IMG/VR virus record: IMGVR_UViG_2579778804_000007
Coordinates: 1 to 34,195 of that record
Source: a virus
Lineage: Duplodnaviria; Heunggongvirae; Uroviricota; Caudoviricetes
Length of the DNA: 34,195 nt
Direction: 5' to 3' (one strand)
A program made the translations under genes and the position numbers. Shown here piece after piece: positions 30,519-34,195 of this stretch (its first letter is position 1; each line of letters begins with the position of its first letter). The notes beneath the pieces were generated by a model. The model ran no database searches. It had not been told where the DNA came from and saw nothing but the letters and a program-made list of their open reading frames with translations.

Positions 30519-30623
30519 TTGTTGACTCCTGAAAAAAGACAAAGGGAAGCCGAAGGCATGAGTGCCTTAATTAATTGCTTGTGTGTTTTCTGGTGTTATT
30601 CCGCTCCTGCTTTCGGCTTCAGA

Positions 30624-30719
30624 TTATCCCCAGATCTTCAGGGCTAACCAGATAAGCGCGCACACCTGAAATATCAGCCATACAGTGGCGATGGTGAGTA
30701 TTGCTTTTACATTCTTCAT
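30624..30719 (-). CDS. Short hydrophobic peptide, 31 aa
   Basis: MKNVKAILTIATVWLIFQVCALIWLALKIWG; single TM helix; no clear ribosome-binding site, 12 nt after the upstream peptide stop; not in ORF track. Confidence 0.35.
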   Translation of the reverse strand: MKNVKAILTIATVWLIFQVCALIWLALKIWG

Positions 30720-30731
30720 AAAGTTTTTGCT

Positions 30732-30857
30732 TTATTTGCGGCGTTTGTCGCCAGTAAAAAATAATTCGATATCCTTCAGTGCGTGGATAATTCGCATAAT
30801 GCCGATTGCCATAAGCACGGAGATAATCAGAATTACCCATGAAAGAAATATGCTCAT
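30732..30857 (-). CDS. Short hydrophobic peptide, 41 aa
   Basis: MSIFLSWVILIISVLMAIGIMRIIHALKDIELFFTGDKRRK; AGGAG 7 nt upstream; ATG overlaps TGA of the upstream 80-aa gene (ATGA); not in ORF track. Confidence 0.45.
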   Translation of the reverse strand: MSIFLSWVILIISVLMAIGIMRIIHALKDIELFFTGDKRRK

Positions 30858-31096
30858 GCTGCCGCTCCTGTGAAGTAAGGCTCAACAATTTCACCTTCAA
30901 ACAGTTCGGCCACAATAACTTTTAATTCTTCCAGTGCTTCGCGGTCATCGCTGCCCAGCGCGCAGTTATACAGTCCCATAATTGCGCCGCGCAGTGAGTT
31001 ACGAAGGCTTTCATCCTTAGTTACGCCCCGGTTTGCAAGTTCGAAGTGGTAACGCTGCAACGCGTTATTAATAAGTATTTTGTAGGCTTCGATCAT
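30854..31096 (-). CDS. Hypothetical protein, 80 aa
   Basis: ORF in operon register, coupled to the downstream short peptide gene. Confidence 0.45.
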   Translation of the reverse strand: MIEAYKILINNALQRYHFELANRGVTKDESLRNSLRGAIMGLYNCALGSDDREALEELKVIVAELFEGEIVEPYFTGAAA

Positions 31097-31115
31097 GGCT
31101 GAATCCTTTTATTTA

Positions 31116-31454
31116 TCAGCGGCGATGTTCCGGGTGCTGAAAACTGCGACCGCTGATTAACCGGTCTGCCGTTCTTAATGCTTCGTGCAGGGTGAAATCC
31201 TGCCCGAACTGCTCATCTCCGCGAGTCAGGGAGTAACAGGTATTTCCGGTAATCGGGTTGCGTGCGCCTCTGTGTATGACAATTCCGGCATCATTAATCA
31301 GCCAGGTGTGTTTACCGGTTTGTTTAACCAGATGCCCGTCAGGTGTGGCGTGCGTTTCCTGCAGACTGTAGTGCGTGTTGCTGCGTGATGCACTGGTTGA
31401 GAAACGGGCTGCGTGGCGTTCTGTGCCAGTGCGGAAGCTGCGTCGCTGTGTCAT
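31116..31454 (-). CDS. Hypothetical protein, 112 aa
   Basis: ORF following a 300-bp gap that holds a palindromic operator-like site. Confidence 0.45.
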   Translation of the reverse strand: MTQRRSFRTGTERHAARFSTSASRSNTHYSLQETHATPDGHLVKQTGKHTWLINDAGIVIHRGARNPITGNTCYSLTRGDEQFGQDFTLHEALRTADRLISGRSFQHPEHRR

Positions 31455-31489
31455 ATCGGAAAACCCCGTTTAAGTTAAATGAAAATCAG

Positions 31490-31530
31490 TACCGGGATGT
31501 TTAACCACGCCCGGCGCGTGGTATTCTGGT
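31490..31530. promoter_or_regulatory. Palindrome CCACGC-ccggc-GCGTGG inside a promoter-like TTTAAC...TATTCT arrangement; candidate operator between divergent transcription units
   Basis: Inverted repeat seen directly in the gap between minus-strand early genes, just upstream of the + strand ORF at 31562. Confidence 0.35.
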
Positions 31531-31561
31531 GTTTCCACACAACCAGAAAAAGGAGATAGCA

Positions 31562-31786
31562 ATGTCTTACGACGATGAATTAATAAAAATGCTTAAATCA
31601 GTAATTGAAATCGTGGATAAAATCCCCGAAGTTCCTCCGTCTTCTGATGATAAGTACGATCAAATCAGAGATCTGGCTAACGATGTCCGCGAAAAAGTAC
31701 TTCATAAATACCCTCGCAAGAGTTCCTGGAACTTTTCTAAGGGACCAACATGCCGGGTTACTCCGGCATTTTTCTTTTGTAAATAG
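31562..31786 (+). CDS. Hypothetical + strand protein, 74 aa, in AT-rich island
   Basis: AGGAG 8 nt upstream of ATG 31562; convergent with, and 3'-overlapping, the minus-strand 131-aa gene. Confidence 0.4.
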   Translation: MSYDDELIKMLKSVIEIVDKIPEVPPSSDDKYDQIRDLANDVREKVLHKYPRKSSWNFSKGPTCRVTPAFFFCK

Positions 31787-32153
31787 TGGTTTTATTAAGT
31801 GCTATTTCTCCGAATATATCCACAGCCTGCTCAACGGGCAGATTAATCATTATTCCACGGGTTGCGTATAGCATTATTCCGATGCATCCATTTTCTCTAC
31901 TTTCGCAAAAGTGCCCGAACTCTGCTTCTGGTTTAAGTATCAGGTCATCAATGTTTTCATTCGCTTTTAGCTTTGAACAAAAGTTAATTAATCCTTTAAG
32001 CTCTTTGTGTAACTCGCTATAGGTTGTTGTGATTGTTATTTTCGGTGAGCCTTCCAGATGCATCAATATCGTGGCGTCCTTGTGTTCCTCTTTCAGGAGG
32101 CTTAACTGCTTAAGGACGGTTGCGGTTTTTTCTGATTTATTTTTGCCGCTCAT
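31758..32153 (-). CDS. Hypothetical protein, 131 aa, AT-rich, second gene of early operon
   Basis: Start 6 nt after the Cox-like gene stop; markedly lower GC than surrounding phage genes. Confidence 0.5.
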   Translation of the reverse strand: MSGKNKSEKTATVLKQLSLLKEEHKDATILMHLEGSPKITITTTYSELHKELKGLINFCSKLKANENIDDLILKPEAEFGHFCESRENGCIGIMLYATRGIMINLPVEQAVDIFGEIALNKTTIYKRKMPE

Positions 32154-32159
32154 CGATCA

Positions 32160-32684
32160 TCACCGTTCGTTTACATCCTGGCTCTGTTCCAGCTTTGACT
32201 TTCTGCCTTTGTAAACCCGTTTTCCATTGACGGTCTGGCAATCTTCCTTATCAGCCGGGGTAAACTTTCTTTTCTGGCGGTCGTATGTCCAGTAGCTTTT
32301 CCAGTTGTGCCATTCTGGTGGCTCACATTCCGGGAGTTCGTCGGCCAGCTTGTCCCACTCTCTGACGTTAAACCACCAAACACCATCCGAATTCTCATCT
32401 TCAGGGTTTGAGCGGGTTTTATGCCCTGGCATCTGGTTACGCTGAAGAGCTGCGCGTAATGCTGTTTTTGTTAATCCGATGTAGGCGGCCCCTTTTTCAA
32501 GTGAGCAAAGCCCGGCTATTGGGCCATCCAGCCGCAGGGTTGCCCCTTTTTTATATGTGCGCTGTGGCTTTTGTTCGTCGTTGTTATCTGTTGCTTCTTG
32601 TTGACTGGTATCGGCGTTGATGTACGCCGCTCCAGTTGTGTGATCGGTGTCAGATAACTCTTTATCGGCAATGAAGTCCCGCAT
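32160..32684 (-). CDS. Cox-like helix-turn-helix protein (putative excisionase / early regulator) with acidic N-terminal extension, 174 aa
   Basis: First gene of the early operon, divergent from the repressor; HTH AAYIGLTKTALRAALQRN then Trp-rich segment resembling P2 Cox; GAGAGGA ribosome-binding site. Confidence 0.45.
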   Translation of the reverse strand: MRDFIADKELSDTDHTTGAAYINADTSQQEATDNNDEQKPQRTYKKGATLRLDGPIAGLCSLEKGAAYIGLTKTALRAALQRNQMPGHKTRSNPEDENSDGVWWFNVREWDKLADELPECEPPEWHNWKSYWTYDRQKRKFTPADKEDCQTVNGKRVYKGRKSKLEQSQDVNER

Positions 32685-32785
32685 TTGTTATCCTCTCGCA
32701 CAGGTGCGCCTATTGCACCTTATGAAGGTTTGTTTTGGTTTGTTTAATGTCGAAATTACGACACTTTTGCGAGGATTTTAGTGGT
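32685..32785. promoter_or_regulatory. Immunity switch region: divergent early and repressor promoters with inverted repeat GGTGC-gcctatt-GCACC (candidate operator)
   Basis: Intergenic between divergent Cox-like and repressor genes; palindrome seen directly; promoter hexamers not confidently assigned. Confidence 0.4.
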
Positions 32786-33133
32786 ATGAATTCGACACTG
32801 TCAATAAGTATCGGTGAAAAAATCTTGATGATCCGGAAAAGTGAGAGGCTTACAAGGAAGCAATTCTTTGAGCTTACAGGGATTCCTGTTAATACGCAGA
32901 GGTATTACGAAACGGGAAGGCAAGATGGAATCGGAAGTGAGATCTTATTAAAGATCACAAAAAATTTACGTTTTAAAAAATATGCACTTTGGTTAACAAC
33001 TGATGAAACGTTTGAAGCTGGAGGTCAAATTGCCCCGGCTCTCTCTCTTGATGGATCTTCTCAGTCGGAGGGCGATCTGGCTTCAATCGACGTTACCCAA
33101 AAATCATCCCGATCAGGCCGCAATGCTGGCTGA
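32786..33133 (+). CDS. CI-type immunity repressor (XRE-family helix-turn-helix)
   Basis: HTH IRKSERLTRKQFFELTGIPVNTQRYYETGR; start at ATG 32786 (track ORF from 32735); immediately upstream of the integrase, as P2 C-int. Confidence 0.7.
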   Translation: MNSTLSISIGEKILMIRKSERLTRKQFFELTGIPVNTQRYYETGRQDGIGSEILLKITKNLRFKKYALWLTTDETFEAGGQIAPALSLDGSSQSEGDLASIDVTQKSSRSGRNAG

Positions 33134-33202
33134 CGTTACACATCGAGCGGGTTTCATCCCGCAGGGAGTGTTTGGTTAATTTATCCGTTGGAGGGGCTAA
33201 TC

Positions 33203-34195
33203 ATGTCGATTAAGCAACTCAAAGACGGACGTTATAAGGTTGATGTAAGGCCACAAGGGACGGAAGGAAAGCGGATTCGTAAGATTTTTACCCTGAAGTC
33301 AAAGGCGCAGGAGTTTGAAAGGTATGTTTTGCAGAATTTTCATGATAAGCCATGGCAGGCTAAGCCAGTAGATCAGCGTCGGTTATCCGAACTGATAGAG
33401 GCCTGGTGGTTGCTTGATGGTCGTAACCAGGATTACGGGGATACCTACAGGGTCAGACTGGAAAAGATAAACCGTGAGATGGGTGATCCTCGTGCCAGTC
33501 AGATGACGCGAAAATTTATGCTCGGGTACCGGTCCGACAAATTACAGGCCGGGTTAATGCCTTCCAGCATTAACCGCGATTTGTGTGCCTTGTCTGCAAT
33601 GTTCAGCTCGCTGATTGAGGGTGAGGTGTTCCATAACGAAAACCCGGTTCGGGGAATACGTAAGCTGAAAGTCAGGAACACAGAGATGGCCTTTCTTTCA
33701 GATGAGGAGATTGAACGACTGCTTGAACGACTCGATGGAGATGCGCGGCGTGTTGCCATTCTGTGTCTTTCCACGGGGGCAAGGTGGGGTGAAGCAGCTG
33801 GTTTACGTGGGGAACATATTGTAGGTAACCGCGTGATGTTCTTTAACACCAAGAACGGAAAATCTCGTGCCGTTCCCGTTTCTGATGCGGTACTTGCGTT
33901 AATTAAAACCCGCAGAACCGGATTGTTGTACCAGGCTGATTACCTCAGATTTCGGGAGATCCTTCAGGAGGTGAAGCCGGACTTGCCGAAAGGGCAGGCC
34001 ACCCATGTCATGCGTCATACATTCGCTACACATTTCATGATGAATGGCGGAAATATCGTTACGCTACAACGAATCCTGGGCCATGCCACGATTCAACAAA
34101 CGATGACGTATGCGCATTTTTCGCCGGACTTTTTACAGGATGCAATCAGCTTTAATCCGCTGGCTGAAAGTGTCCATAAACTGTCCATCGATTAG
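33203..34195 (+). CDS. int: Tyrosine site-specific integrase (P2 Int-like)
   Basis: C-terminal catalytic motifs HVMRHTFATH and LGHATIQQTMTYAHF; GGAGGGG ribosome-binding site before ATG 33203; stop codon at 34193-34195, the last bases of the window. Confidence 0.9.
   Translation: MSIKQLKDGRYKVDVRPQGTEGKRIRKIFTLKSKAQEFERYVLQNFHDKPWQAKPVDQRRLSELIEAWWLLDGRNQDYGDTYRVRLEKINREMGDPRASQMTRKFMLGYRSDKLQAGLMPSSINRDLCALSAMFSSLIEGEVFHNENPVRGIRKLKVRNTEMAFLSDEEIERLLERLDGDARRVAILCLSTGARWGEAAGLRGEHIVGNRVMFFNTKNGKSRAVPVSDAVLALIKTRRTGLLYQADYLRFREILQEVKPDLPKGQATHVMRHTFATHFMMNGGNIVTLQRILGHATIQQTMTYAHFSPDFLQDAISFNPLAESVHKLSID

Follow-up and report, generated by a model that had tools for sequence, protein, structure and literature searches.

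The AT-rich segment at positions 31455–32160 of the 34,195-nucleotide viral sequence analysed here (hereafter the window, meaning that whole stretch) is an exchangeable accessory-gene slot just 3′ of cox, in a P2-like Escherichia coli prophage beside dmsA. The slot probably holds two independent units: ORF131, a gene of the early operon, and a moron-like cassette under a portable head and leader module. Across Enterobacterales, a few dozen near-invariant bases with covarying stems, the head of this module, precede at least 42 unrelated small genes.

Base composition sets the segment apart. Its GC content is 0.407 (40.7%) against a window mean of 0.56 (s.d. 0.046 in 706-bp windows); only 0.15% of 706-bp windows are as GC-poor, and it is the window's lowest-GC stretch. 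By gene, the values are 0.394 for ORF131, 0.391 for the small plus-strand ORF, 0.50 for cox and 0.555 for the DUF4761 gene. A first-pass annotation had described an AT-rich island with a sharp drop in GC relative to its flanks and suggested horizontally acquired cargo. The windowed GC values reproduce the drop, and the strongly deviant composition, together with the swapping of content between cox and the DUF4761 gene in sister prophages, upholds the interpretation. The minus-strand features of the locus are as follows:

32775–32804, minus strand: Pe-like early promoter, TTGACA-18-TAAAAT (promoter scan, 11/12 matches)
32160–32684, minus strand: regulator of the Cox family, which heads the early operon (Pfam Phage_Cox, E 3e-6; PHROG 23196, E 3e-95)
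31758–32153, minus strand: ORF131, 131 aa, the second early (Pe) operon gene, immediately behind cox
31116–31454, minus strand: DUF4761 early gene, conserved and bounding the variable slot on the left (Pfam PF15958, E 7e-48)

The gene order runs int, C-like repressor, cox, ORF131, plus-strand ORF, DUF4761, DUF4754 and on to gpA, with dmsA adjoining in relatives. An integrase, an HTH repressor and a divergent operon led by Phage_Cox, with the replication endonuclease gpA in relatives, identify a P2-like (Peduoviridae) early region. By analogy with the P2 layout, the Pe-like promoter would drive cox, ORF131 and transcription antisense to the cassette. The DUF4761 gene was found at all sister loci, and between it and cox other genes occur in six loci (L003, L004, L005, L019, L020 and L022), sister prophages at the same dmsA site included; a check for homologous phages that lack the segment, as suggested in the first-pass annotation, returned sisters with different genes in this position. 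The locus sample is enriched in loci carrying the small plus-strand gene family described below (MSYD), which were fetched on purpose. The int-to-gpA interval is a minor defence hotspot of P2-like phages, with about 8% of their defence systems (PMC13586616), the main ones being the gpA-to-gpQ interval and a site within the tail genes (Rousset et al. 2022, PMC9122126; PMC13586616). Our locus resembles such hotspots in lying in that interval and in having hypervariable content between conserved flanks. It differs from them in carrying very small single genes under a common leader rather than multi-gene systems, and no family of PADLOC-DB 2.0 matched ORF131, the small ORF, the L003 alternatives or DUF4761.

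The plus strand of the slot carries the components of the putative cassette:

31484–31522, plus strand: conserved head element, GAATwwGTGCCGGG(w)TTTTAG-CCAYGC-CCGGC-GCRTGG, the whole element being about 45 nt
31523–31561, plus strand: leader from the head element to the start codon, with a TGGTATTCT box, a second hairpin and the Shine-Dalgarno (SD) sequence AAGGAG
31562–31786, plus strand: small cargo gene of the MSYD family (MSYD...KYPxxSxWxF), 74 aa, its ATG behind AAGGAG
31748–31749, no strand assigned: junction left by the deletion of 12 bp that the closest relatives retain (alignment A1; missing bases CATACTAATAAC)
31750–31779, plus strand: intrinsic-terminator-like hairpin ATGCCGGGTTACTCCGGCAT with a T-run, inside the last ORF131 codons (terminator scan)

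ORF131 and the small plus-strand gene are both real genes. ORF131 belongs to a narrow family whose members all come from P2-like prophages of Escherichia, Salmonella and Citrobacter and follow cox in every one sampled from these genera. An E(F/Y)GHF motif is invariant across this small family, and a dN/dS of about 0.2 indicates long-term purifying selection. The MSYD protein has 74 aa in the window; that of the closest relatives has 64 aa and that of a second subfamily 60 aa, and a further homologue occurs in Pantoea stewartii (hmmsearch, E 8e-12). Purifying selection on its gene is clear between the subfamilies (pN 0.42 vs pS 0.80) and in Pantoea. Against its own reading, the first-pass annotation had set a conserved core early gene accompanied by an unconserved plus-strand ORF. 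The first half of that picture stands, ORF131 being a conserved early gene in a P2-like subgroup; the second does not, the plus-strand ORF being conserved at the protein level as well.

Neither protein had been recognisable from the sequence, and remote homology searches left them so. Sequence profiles from Pfam, PHROGs, PADLOC, NCBIfam and the PDB returned unnamed prophage proteins or nothing for both, and the outcome was the same when 1.84 billion representatives were searched exhaustively with phmmer and 5.8 billion proteins with a profile. No recognisable fold emerged for ORF131, and no PADLOC, Pfam, PHROG or NCBIfam match linked either protein to exclusion or defence. A match to P0007 (1035 aa, with repeats) was judged spurious.

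The two genes converge, as previously annotated, and in the window they overlap tail-to-tail by 29 bp (31758–31786). This overlap is specific to the allele. In the closest relatives, L001 and L009, the small protein ends ...GPTY-TAA at 64 aa, leaving a 13-bp gap to ORF131 and zero overlap. Loss of the 12 bp CATACTAATAAC removes that TAA and so gives rise to the 74-aa form, the 29-bp overlap and an ORF that runs through its own terminator hairpin; judging from the alignment, the 3′ overlap is the product of a recent deletion. Tail-to-tail packing as such recurs, with a 0-bp gap in L013 and overlaps of 7 bp in L019, 50 bp in L020 and 30 bp in phage phiES15. The hairpin at 31750–31779 is a predicted terminator of the cassette's own on the plus strand (fold −12.2 kcal/mol, z −1.9), and its counterpart in L013 includes a G.U pair on the cargo strand.

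Among DNA more than 95% identical, the MSYD gene comes in five or more alleles that differ by frameshifts or at the C-terminus. These include frameshifts in L002 and P0005 and a truncation in P0004; the 74-aa allele itself recurs in other isolates (P0003, 18 member sequences). Substitutions within a type are mostly non-synonymous (for example 1 synonymous vs 5 non-synonymous, and 0 vs 4). With several near-identical alleles frameshifted or truncated and changes of this kind, the gene may be decaying in the window's lineage. One might then see the small ORF as a remnant here, and the antisense transcript as what matters, damping leaky expression of the early operon. We give this explanation little credence: the window's protein keeps all 60 conserved residues, its SD and ATG are conserved, and selection has been purifying between subfamilies and in Pantoea.

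Two small neighbouring genes beside an inverted repeat, carried by a mobile element, are reminiscent of a type II toxin-antitoxin system, and the first-pass annotation had thought a toxin-antitoxin-like or regulatory switch module possible. On such a reading ORF131 and the small protein would cooperate and the palindrome would be their operator. Some co-divergence is apparent: ORF131 is about 30% identical to P0006 (for which tblastn against deposited phages gave no match), the 64-aa and 60-aa MSYD proteins are 38% identical, both pairs are tail-to-tail, and they are found with three Cox types at three integration sites. However, a type II system is an operon, whereas these genes lie on opposite strands, ORF131 within the repressed cox early operon, and they are separable both ways. 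ORF131-family genes take five other kinds of convergent partner (L003, L019–L022, L025), for example 78-aa, 107+172-aa, 155-aa and 162+41-aa, while the MSYD gene occurs without ORF131 in Pantoea (L030). In L002 the small ORF is frameshifted and ORF131 intact; between the window and L009, ORF131 has a dS of 0.36 while the small gene is nearly identical, so that their recombination histories are separate. No toxin, antitoxin or defence profile matches either protein, and the inverted repeat is common to unrelated cargo rather than specific to the pair. A two-partner system is hence very improbable, and the locus is better described as the accessory slot of a P2-like prophage than as a toxin-antitoxin pair.

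The inverted repeat in question, ACCACGC/GCGTGGT at 31504–31510 and 31516–31522, lies within the head element. It had been called a perfect palindrome; an inverted repeat is indeed present, but its 7-bp arms are split by a 5-nt spacer. By itself a 7-bp repeat is unremarkable, with 22 repeats of at least 6 nt in 850 nt. The motif CCAYGC-N5-GCRTGG is expected 0.03 times per window and is extremely conserved elsewhere. We found the head element in 15 species genomes across Enterobacterales, in at least 119 IMG/VR contigs of P2-like and lambdoid phages, and in phages SopEPhi, HK225 and Edno5, with a diverged copy in phiES15. In SopEPhi, carried by S. Typhimurium SL1344, the locus has a 91-aa ORF that is not annotated. 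Among the matches listed, the Y and R stem positions are complementary in all 123 unique head versions, and for 133 of 157 element instances a same-strand ORF of 35 aa or more follows within 150 nt. The ORFs behind the element fall into at least 42 unrelated families, among them ECs1072 and, in two fetched viral contigs (L098 and L133), SieB (PF14163, E 9e-23). Both the orientation of the head and its distance to the plus-strand SD and ATG are kept in unrelated contexts, such as the HK225 late operon and L006, where it lies between cox and C. In roughly half of 99 contexts, the cassette has opposite-strand ORFs on both sides. A regulatory role for the head element is very likely, yet the notion of a palindromic operator dedicated to this gene pair is not supported, since the same element accompanies such varied cargo and unrelated repressors. 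We discarded a reverse-strand sigma54 site (TGGC-N10-GCA), as its spacer differs in length by 0–2 nt between versions.

Between the head and the SD lies a leader of one of three structured classes, A (that of the window), B and C. In all three the predicted fold is more stable than that of shuffled sequence (mean z −1.5, −2.4 and −1.1). In the window the second hairpin pairs TTCTGGT with ACCAGAA (31524–31530/31542–31548), and relatives show compensatory variants: TCTTGG/CCAAGA, CTGACGG/CTGTCAG, CCTCTT/AAGAGG, CCTTATC/GATAAGG and TTCTGTT/AACAGAA. These variants were listed by eye, the second hairpin being out of register in several rows of MAFFT alignment A6.

Folding z-scores and energies are equal on both strands and so do not discriminate between them. 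The structures might instead act on the minus strand: the early transcript has to cross the cassette, and in it they could serve, for instance, to direct processing or stability ahead of DUF4761, with the plus-strand ORFs being incidental. At most P2-like loci the head element does abut the next early gene at its start, as this explanation would have it. It nevertheless seems to us very unlikely. The constant orientation and SD/ATG distance on the plus strand in unrelated contexts speak against it, the G.U pairs of L076, L037, the competing helix described below and the L013 terminator become C.A mismatches on the minus strand, and that strand has no U-tract.

A default promoter scan found no promoter for the plus-strand cassette. 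The sole sigma70-like match combines TGGTATTCT, which resembles an extended −10, with TTTAAC 16 bp upstream (17 bp with GTTTAA as the −35). On this basis the inverted repeat could be a DNA operator occupying the spacer of a sigma70 promoter, between a TTTAAC −35 and an extended −10 TGGTATTCT, and bound by a factor that all hosts share or by a conserved phage protein. A TGnTAnnnT box comes straight after the repeat in class A; most class B leaders have it 6–10 nt (typically 8) further on. Its TA and final T are constant and the three bases in between differ, a pattern also seen in genuine −10 elements. The phiES15 version of the box is TGGTATACT, and there too the spacer is an inverted repeat, although of different sequence. 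Covariation of the half-sites is also compatible with a symmetric DNA-binding dimer. However, the box coincides in part with the 5′ arm of a covarying helix, an argument for its being transcribed rather than a −10: the compensatory helices of classes A and B begin inside it or at most 3 nt after it, and a transcript starting about 7 nt downstream would lose their 5′ arms. Class C leaders have no box at that position, the phages have unrelated repressors, and we did not recognise a known host-factor site in the repeat. An operator of this kind is possible but unlikely.

The head could alternatively belong to an RNA attenuator. At the Gifsy-1 isrK locus, a leader hairpin and U-tract are followed by a small ORF with its ribosome-binding site (RBS) in alternative structures, a mechanism that has been documented (PMC4825925). 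By analogy, a short leader RNA would stop at the hairpin and U-rich tract, the read-through mRNA would be silent with its RBS paired, and pairing of GUGCCGGG with CCCGGCGC, competing with the hairpin, would switch the state. In the window's head, CCGGG (31492–31496) has an alternative pairing with CCCGG (31511–31515). Pyrimidine- or U-rich tracts follow the hairpin in common leader types, for example UUUUGUGGUAUUUUU, UUUCCCUGCUUUCC and UAUUCUGGUGUUU. A competing helix of 8–9 bp with G.U pairs, possible on the cargo strand only, is the predicted minimum-free-energy fold in most class B and some class A leaders. Of the class B leaders, 24 of 41 have a paired SD, as do 17 of 24 in class C. Like isrK-orf45-anrP (RF01394), our module would thus be a prophage leader hairpin with a U-tract before a small ORF whose RBS takes part in alternative structures, and the short motif GUGCCGGGAU is common to it and the isrK consensus. 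Against this, only 3 of 20 leaders of class A, the window's own, have a paired SD, and the competing helix shows no covariation because the core is invariant. Conservation of the head stops about 12 nt upstream of CCGGG, information content being about 0 beyond −12, and a search of the region before the element for a conserved −35 or −10 found neither. The Rfam isrK match is confined to the relative HK225, where it is weak (21.2 bits vs a gathering threshold of 50) and on the opposite strand; window positions 31000–33300 gave no isrK match at E up to 5. We regard an isrK-like attenuator as rather unlikely.

We return to the accessory slot with its two independent units. ORF131 would presumably be transcribed from Pe only once the repressor is lifted. 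The opposite-strand cassette would comprise the head element of about 45 nt, a structured leader extending to the SD, the MSYD gene and an intrinsic terminator inside the 3′ end of ORF131, with head and leader acting as a portable expression or regulation module that many P2-like and lambdoid temperate phages of enterobacteria put before dozens of interchangeable small cargoes. We infer expression in lysogeny from the orientation of the cassette only: with the lytic operon silent in the lysogen, the cassette could be transcribed against it. Base-pairing in the leader may then tune translation, and after induction the converging transcription from Pe and from the cassette would be expected to interfere.

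This arrangement recalls the moron, or lysogenic-conversion, genes of the Hendrix/Juhala concept, such as tin, old and fun(Z) of P2 and bor and lom of lambda, which in their classical form were described with individual promoters. Like them, the cassette consists of a predicted regulatory region, one ORF and a terminator, inserted in a lytic operon and oriented against it; its composition is deviant (GC 0.39–0.41 vs flanks of 0.50–0.56), and it is present or absent among close relatives. It departs from them in that the regulatory head is itself conserved and portable, across P2-like and lambdoid phages and at least 42 cargo families. The nearest functional clue comes from SieB of lambda and P22, since a SieB-family gene stands behind the same head element in L098 and L133. 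Ranade and Poteete are said to have found, in 1993, that sieB is expressed by the prophage from its own promoter inside an early operon. With SieB as one cargo family, the MSYD protein would most plausibly be a prophage-expressed factor in phage-phage or phage-host conflict. Sharing a control element with SieB does not show a common function, and the proteins differ: that of the window is dissimilar, has 60–74 aa across its family and looks soluble, whereas SieB has about 190 aa and is membrane-bound. In Pfam the 74-aa protein had no match, the SieB profile PF14163 included.

More broadly, we propose tentatively that the head of about 45 nt, joined to one of three structured leader classes that pair with or next to the RBS, may be an undescribed and very widespread cis-regulatory module, a plug for hypervariable small cargo including SieB. 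The module has no Rfam family, and a literature search covering the motif, DUF4761, antisense genes of the P2 early operon and the BTP5 transcriptome found nothing on this locus. If it is a conformational RNA switch or a host-factor site, dozens of prophage accessory genes would share a regulatory input, raising the question of what signal co-regulates all the genes behind the element. The head would also be a sequence tag for new exclusion, defence and anti-defence proteins, many now unannotated, and could serve a systematic harvest of prophage cargo, among which one established exclusion protein already figures. Three published phage genomes lack an annotation for the gene that follows the element or probably have it called on the wrong strand.

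At its right end the window carries the regulatory region of a P2-like prophage, with the following features.

33188 to the window end, plus strand: integrase
32792-33133, plus strand: C-type repressor, helix-turn-helix
32804-32775, minus strand: Pe-like promoter from a promoter scan, TTGACA-18-TAAAAT
32160-32684, minus strand: Cox-family protein of 174 aa, in the divergent early operon
31758-32153, minus strand: 131-aa protein (ORF131), early operon
31116-31454, minus strand: DUF4761 protein, early operon
Same minus-strand early operon: DUF4754 protein and further genes

The promoter at 32775-32804 (-), near-consensus for sigma70, faces cox and overlaps the start of the repressor gene, a layout that would be expected for the face-to-face switch between the early (Pe) and repressor (Pc) promoters of P2. 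At about 97-98% identity the region occurs in 11 complete E. coli genomes, beside dmsA in every fetched locus, and 3 more E. coli genomes carry a replacement within it; the cox part only, at 77-83% identity, is common to about 300 further genomes and a few deposited P2-like phages. Elsewhere in the window, a 41-aa hydrophobic ORF (MSIFLSWVILIISVLMAIGIM...) at 30732-30857 (-), a hypothetical protein in the annotation of relatives, has a 4-bp overlap with the stop of the DUF4754 gene inside a second AT-rich patch (30550-31000, GC about 0.42), and GC is low again over positions 1-1500, which rank among the lowest of the sequence's 706-bp windows.

The first-pass annotation described 31455-32160 as an AT-rich island with a convergent, overlapping gene pair, and both features hold. 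Windowed GC is 0.407 against 0.56 ± 0.046 for same-size windows, of which 0.15% are as low, and ORF131 shares 29 bp (31758-31786) with a 74-aa plus-strand ORF that starts with ATG at 31562 behind AAGGAG and stops at 31784-31786. The small ORF of the closest relatives has 64 aa, ends ...GPTY-TAA and leaves a 13-bp gap before ORF131; its stop is followed by a hairpin and T-run (ATGCCGGGTTACTCCGGCAT TTTTCTTTTG), which lies at 31750-31779 in the window and is predicted by a terminator scan to be an intrinsic terminator. Compared with these relatives, 12 bp (CATACTAATAAC) are missing from the window at about 31748/31749. This loss removes the stop codon, so that translation would continue across the terminator and enter ORF131 at its 3′ end. 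On this sequence comparison, the 29-bp overlap is a recent accident.

ORF131 and the small ORF are both, as judged from their relatives, real genes. A 60-aa counterpart of the small protein (38% identity; pattern MSYD...KYPxxSxWxF) sits beside a second ORF131 subfamily, and a homologue is present in Pantoea stewartii. Between subfamilies the MSYD gene has a pN of 0.42 and a saturated pS of 0.80; within one subfamily the changes are few and mostly non-synonymous. These patterns point to constraint over the long term that shows signs of having relaxed recently.

The order cox, ORF131-family gene, convergent small gene and DUF4761 gene recurs with 3 Cox types and at 3 or more integration sites, and so looks like a module. 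A toxin-antitoxin-like pair had been suggested, but the partners are separable. Relatives of ORF131 face a 78-aa protein (locus L019), a 155-aa ECs1072-family protein (L020, L021, L025), a 162+41-aa pair (L022) or a 172-aa and a 107-aa gene (L003), and the Pantoea MSYD gene adjoins an unrelated early gene. Between the window and L009, one of its closest relatives, ORF131 has a dS of 0.36 and the small gene is almost identical, which implies different recombination histories. The C-terminus of the ORF131 family varies with the partner (121, 135, 162 or 203 aa), placing an exchange boundary inside the 3′ end of the gene. With the convergent orientation, and with no family match for either protein that ties the pair to toxin-antitoxin systems, we reject the classical form of this reading; some functional link between the two genes is possible. 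At L003 2464-3283 (E. coli O22:H8 strain 154), and at the same place in JNEC-KY172 and OkiPb01677, the 107-aa plus-strand gene replaces the 64-aa gene behind the same conserved sequence described below, with ORF131 retained and the 172-aa minus-strand gene added; neither the 107-aa nor the 172-aa protein matches any family.

Upstream of the small gene, the palindrome reported as perfect is an inverted repeat with 7-bp arms and a 5-nt spacer, ACCACGC-CCGGC-GCGTGGT (31504-31522). A bare inverted repeat of that size is nothing unusual in the window; for the specific motif, 0.03 chance occurrences are expected per window. Other E. coli prophages share a 66-bp piece of the window (31492-31557), which there precedes an unrelated plus-strand ORF of 78 aa, between cox and C in one case and among early genes in another. 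In prophages at cpxP (L006/L007 3001-3305), the element and 78-aa cargo lie between cox and the repressor gene, giving a switch region of more than 500 bp, unusual for a P2-type Pe/Pc arrangement.

An exact pattern, TTTARCCAYGCCCGGCGCRTGGT, was found in 15 species-representative genomes (Escherichia albertii, Pectobacterium, Brenneria, Pantoea, Erwinia, Sodalis, Kosakonia, Enterobacter and Izhakiella), and a slightly looser one in at least 119 IMG/VR contigs. BLAST placed the element in SopEPhi, a P2-like phage, and in lambdoid-type phages: Edno5; phiES15, whose copy is diverged with a palindrome of different sequence; and HK225, where it lies between Q and the holin gene and precedes the antisense gene gp66. 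Across 123 unique versions among the matches listed, the core of this head element reads GAATwwGTG-CCGGG-(w)TTTTAG-CCAYGC-CCGGC-GCRTGG; conservation sets in about 12 nt ahead of CCGGG, and further upstream the versions share no -35 or -10. The Y and R stem positions were left free in the search pattern, and in these versions they are always complementary (C-G or T-A), each form occurring with different downstream leaders.

These leaders fall into three classes. Class A, which includes the window, has TAT(T/C)(C/T)T directly after the repeat and then a second hairpin, with the Shine-Dalgarno sequence adjoining its 3′ arm or forming part of it. Its stem varies in a compensatory way between phages: TTCTGGT/ACCAGAA in the window, and elsewhere TCTTGG/CCAAGA, CTGACGG/CTGTCAG, CCTCTT/AAGAGG, CCTTATC/GATAAGG and TTCTGTT/AACAGAA. 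Class B carries TTTTGTGGTAnnnT, an inner stem-loop whose pairing is conserved and whose sequence varies, and ACCACAAAGGA, able to pair back to UUUGUGGU; class C has two TTTCCACAGACAAAGGAAA repeats, each of which can pair UUCC with GGAA. Compared with shuffled controls the leaders fold better (mean z of -1.5, -2.4 and -1.1 for the three classes), and do so equally on either strand; G.U pairs favour the cargo strand. In most class B leaders and some of class A, the fold predicted to have the lowest energy is a competing helix of GUGCCGGG with CCCGGCGC, which overlaps the repeat hairpin. The window's own predicted alternative is nested, pairing CCGGGAU with AUUCUGG and UUUCC with GGAGA.

Were the head a promoter with an operator, TGnTAnnnT would serve as an extended -10, with the repeat in the spacer or at -35. 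On the alternative reading it would be a transcribed leader, acting as an attenuator or translational switch resembling isrK-orf45 (PMC4825925). The covarying helices begin inside or directly after the -10-like box, which favours the transcribed leader; the lack of any upstream promoter signal counts against it. The window has no match in Rfam; a sub-threshold isrK match (L040 1816-1893, minus strand; 21.2 bits against a gathering score of 50) occurs in one relative, HK225, between gp66 and the holin gene. It lies on the strand opposite to the element and spans the CCGGG...CCCGG helix and a downstream terminator; GUGCCGGGAU is common to the isrK consensus and the head. Phages sharing the element have unrelated repressors, so any trans-acting factor is more likely host-encoded, or none exists.

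Behind the element, 133 of 157 instances among the matches listed have a Shine-Dalgarno-preceded ORF of at least 35 aa on the same strand within 150 nt. These ORFs are mostly of 40-190 aa, and BLASTP separates them into at least 42 unrelated families. Three resemble named families: SieB (PF14163, E 9e-23), the ECs1072 phage family and, below threshold, YmfI/GhoS. A crude flank analysis found opposite-strand ORFs on both sides in about half of contexts. The proposal of horizontally acquired cargo is borne out by the low GC and by sister loci that hold other genes in the slot. The simplest account is a moron-type cassette: a cargo ORF with a terminator behind it and, in front, a regulatory head and leader that are portable. 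Such a unit would sit antisense within the lytic operon, and recombination between the head, which is conserved, and the facing gene's 3′ end would exchange it. From this orientation and the behaviour of other lysogenic-conversion genes, we infer that the cassette may be expressed in the lysogen and interfere with Pe.

P2-like phages have a known minor defence-system hotspot between int and gpA (PMC13586616), and the presence of SieB among the cargoes suggests a part in conflict between phages; neither the MSYD protein nor ORF131 could be tied to a particular activity. As a locus this is unremarkable, one more accessory slot in a prophage. The more interesting by-product is the head, apparently an undescribed and very widespread control element that marks small, hypervariable genes of prophages.

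Unannotated ORFs follow the element in SopEPhi (AY319521; L041 2571-2846; 91 aa) and phiES15 (NC_018454; L042 2066-2353; 95 aa, with a 30-bp overlap with convergent gp10). In Edno5 (NC_054464; L043 2102-2314) a zinc-ribbon cargo ORF of 70 aa occupies the place of gp50, whose annotation on the opposite strand is probably a mis-call. In sister prophages at dmsA (L004, L005) and in loci L013-L018, the early operon carries a ParE-like toxin gene adjoining a Dam methylase and 3′-5′ exonuclease, and several have a 75-76-aa protein with a Pfam 'Derepression' domain (PF25738) upstream of gpA. Lastly, L005 2556-2700 holds a head element, class B leader, Shine-Dalgarno sequence, ATG and 13-codon ORF followed by unrelated genes, a remnant which suggests that cargo was lost and the head kept.
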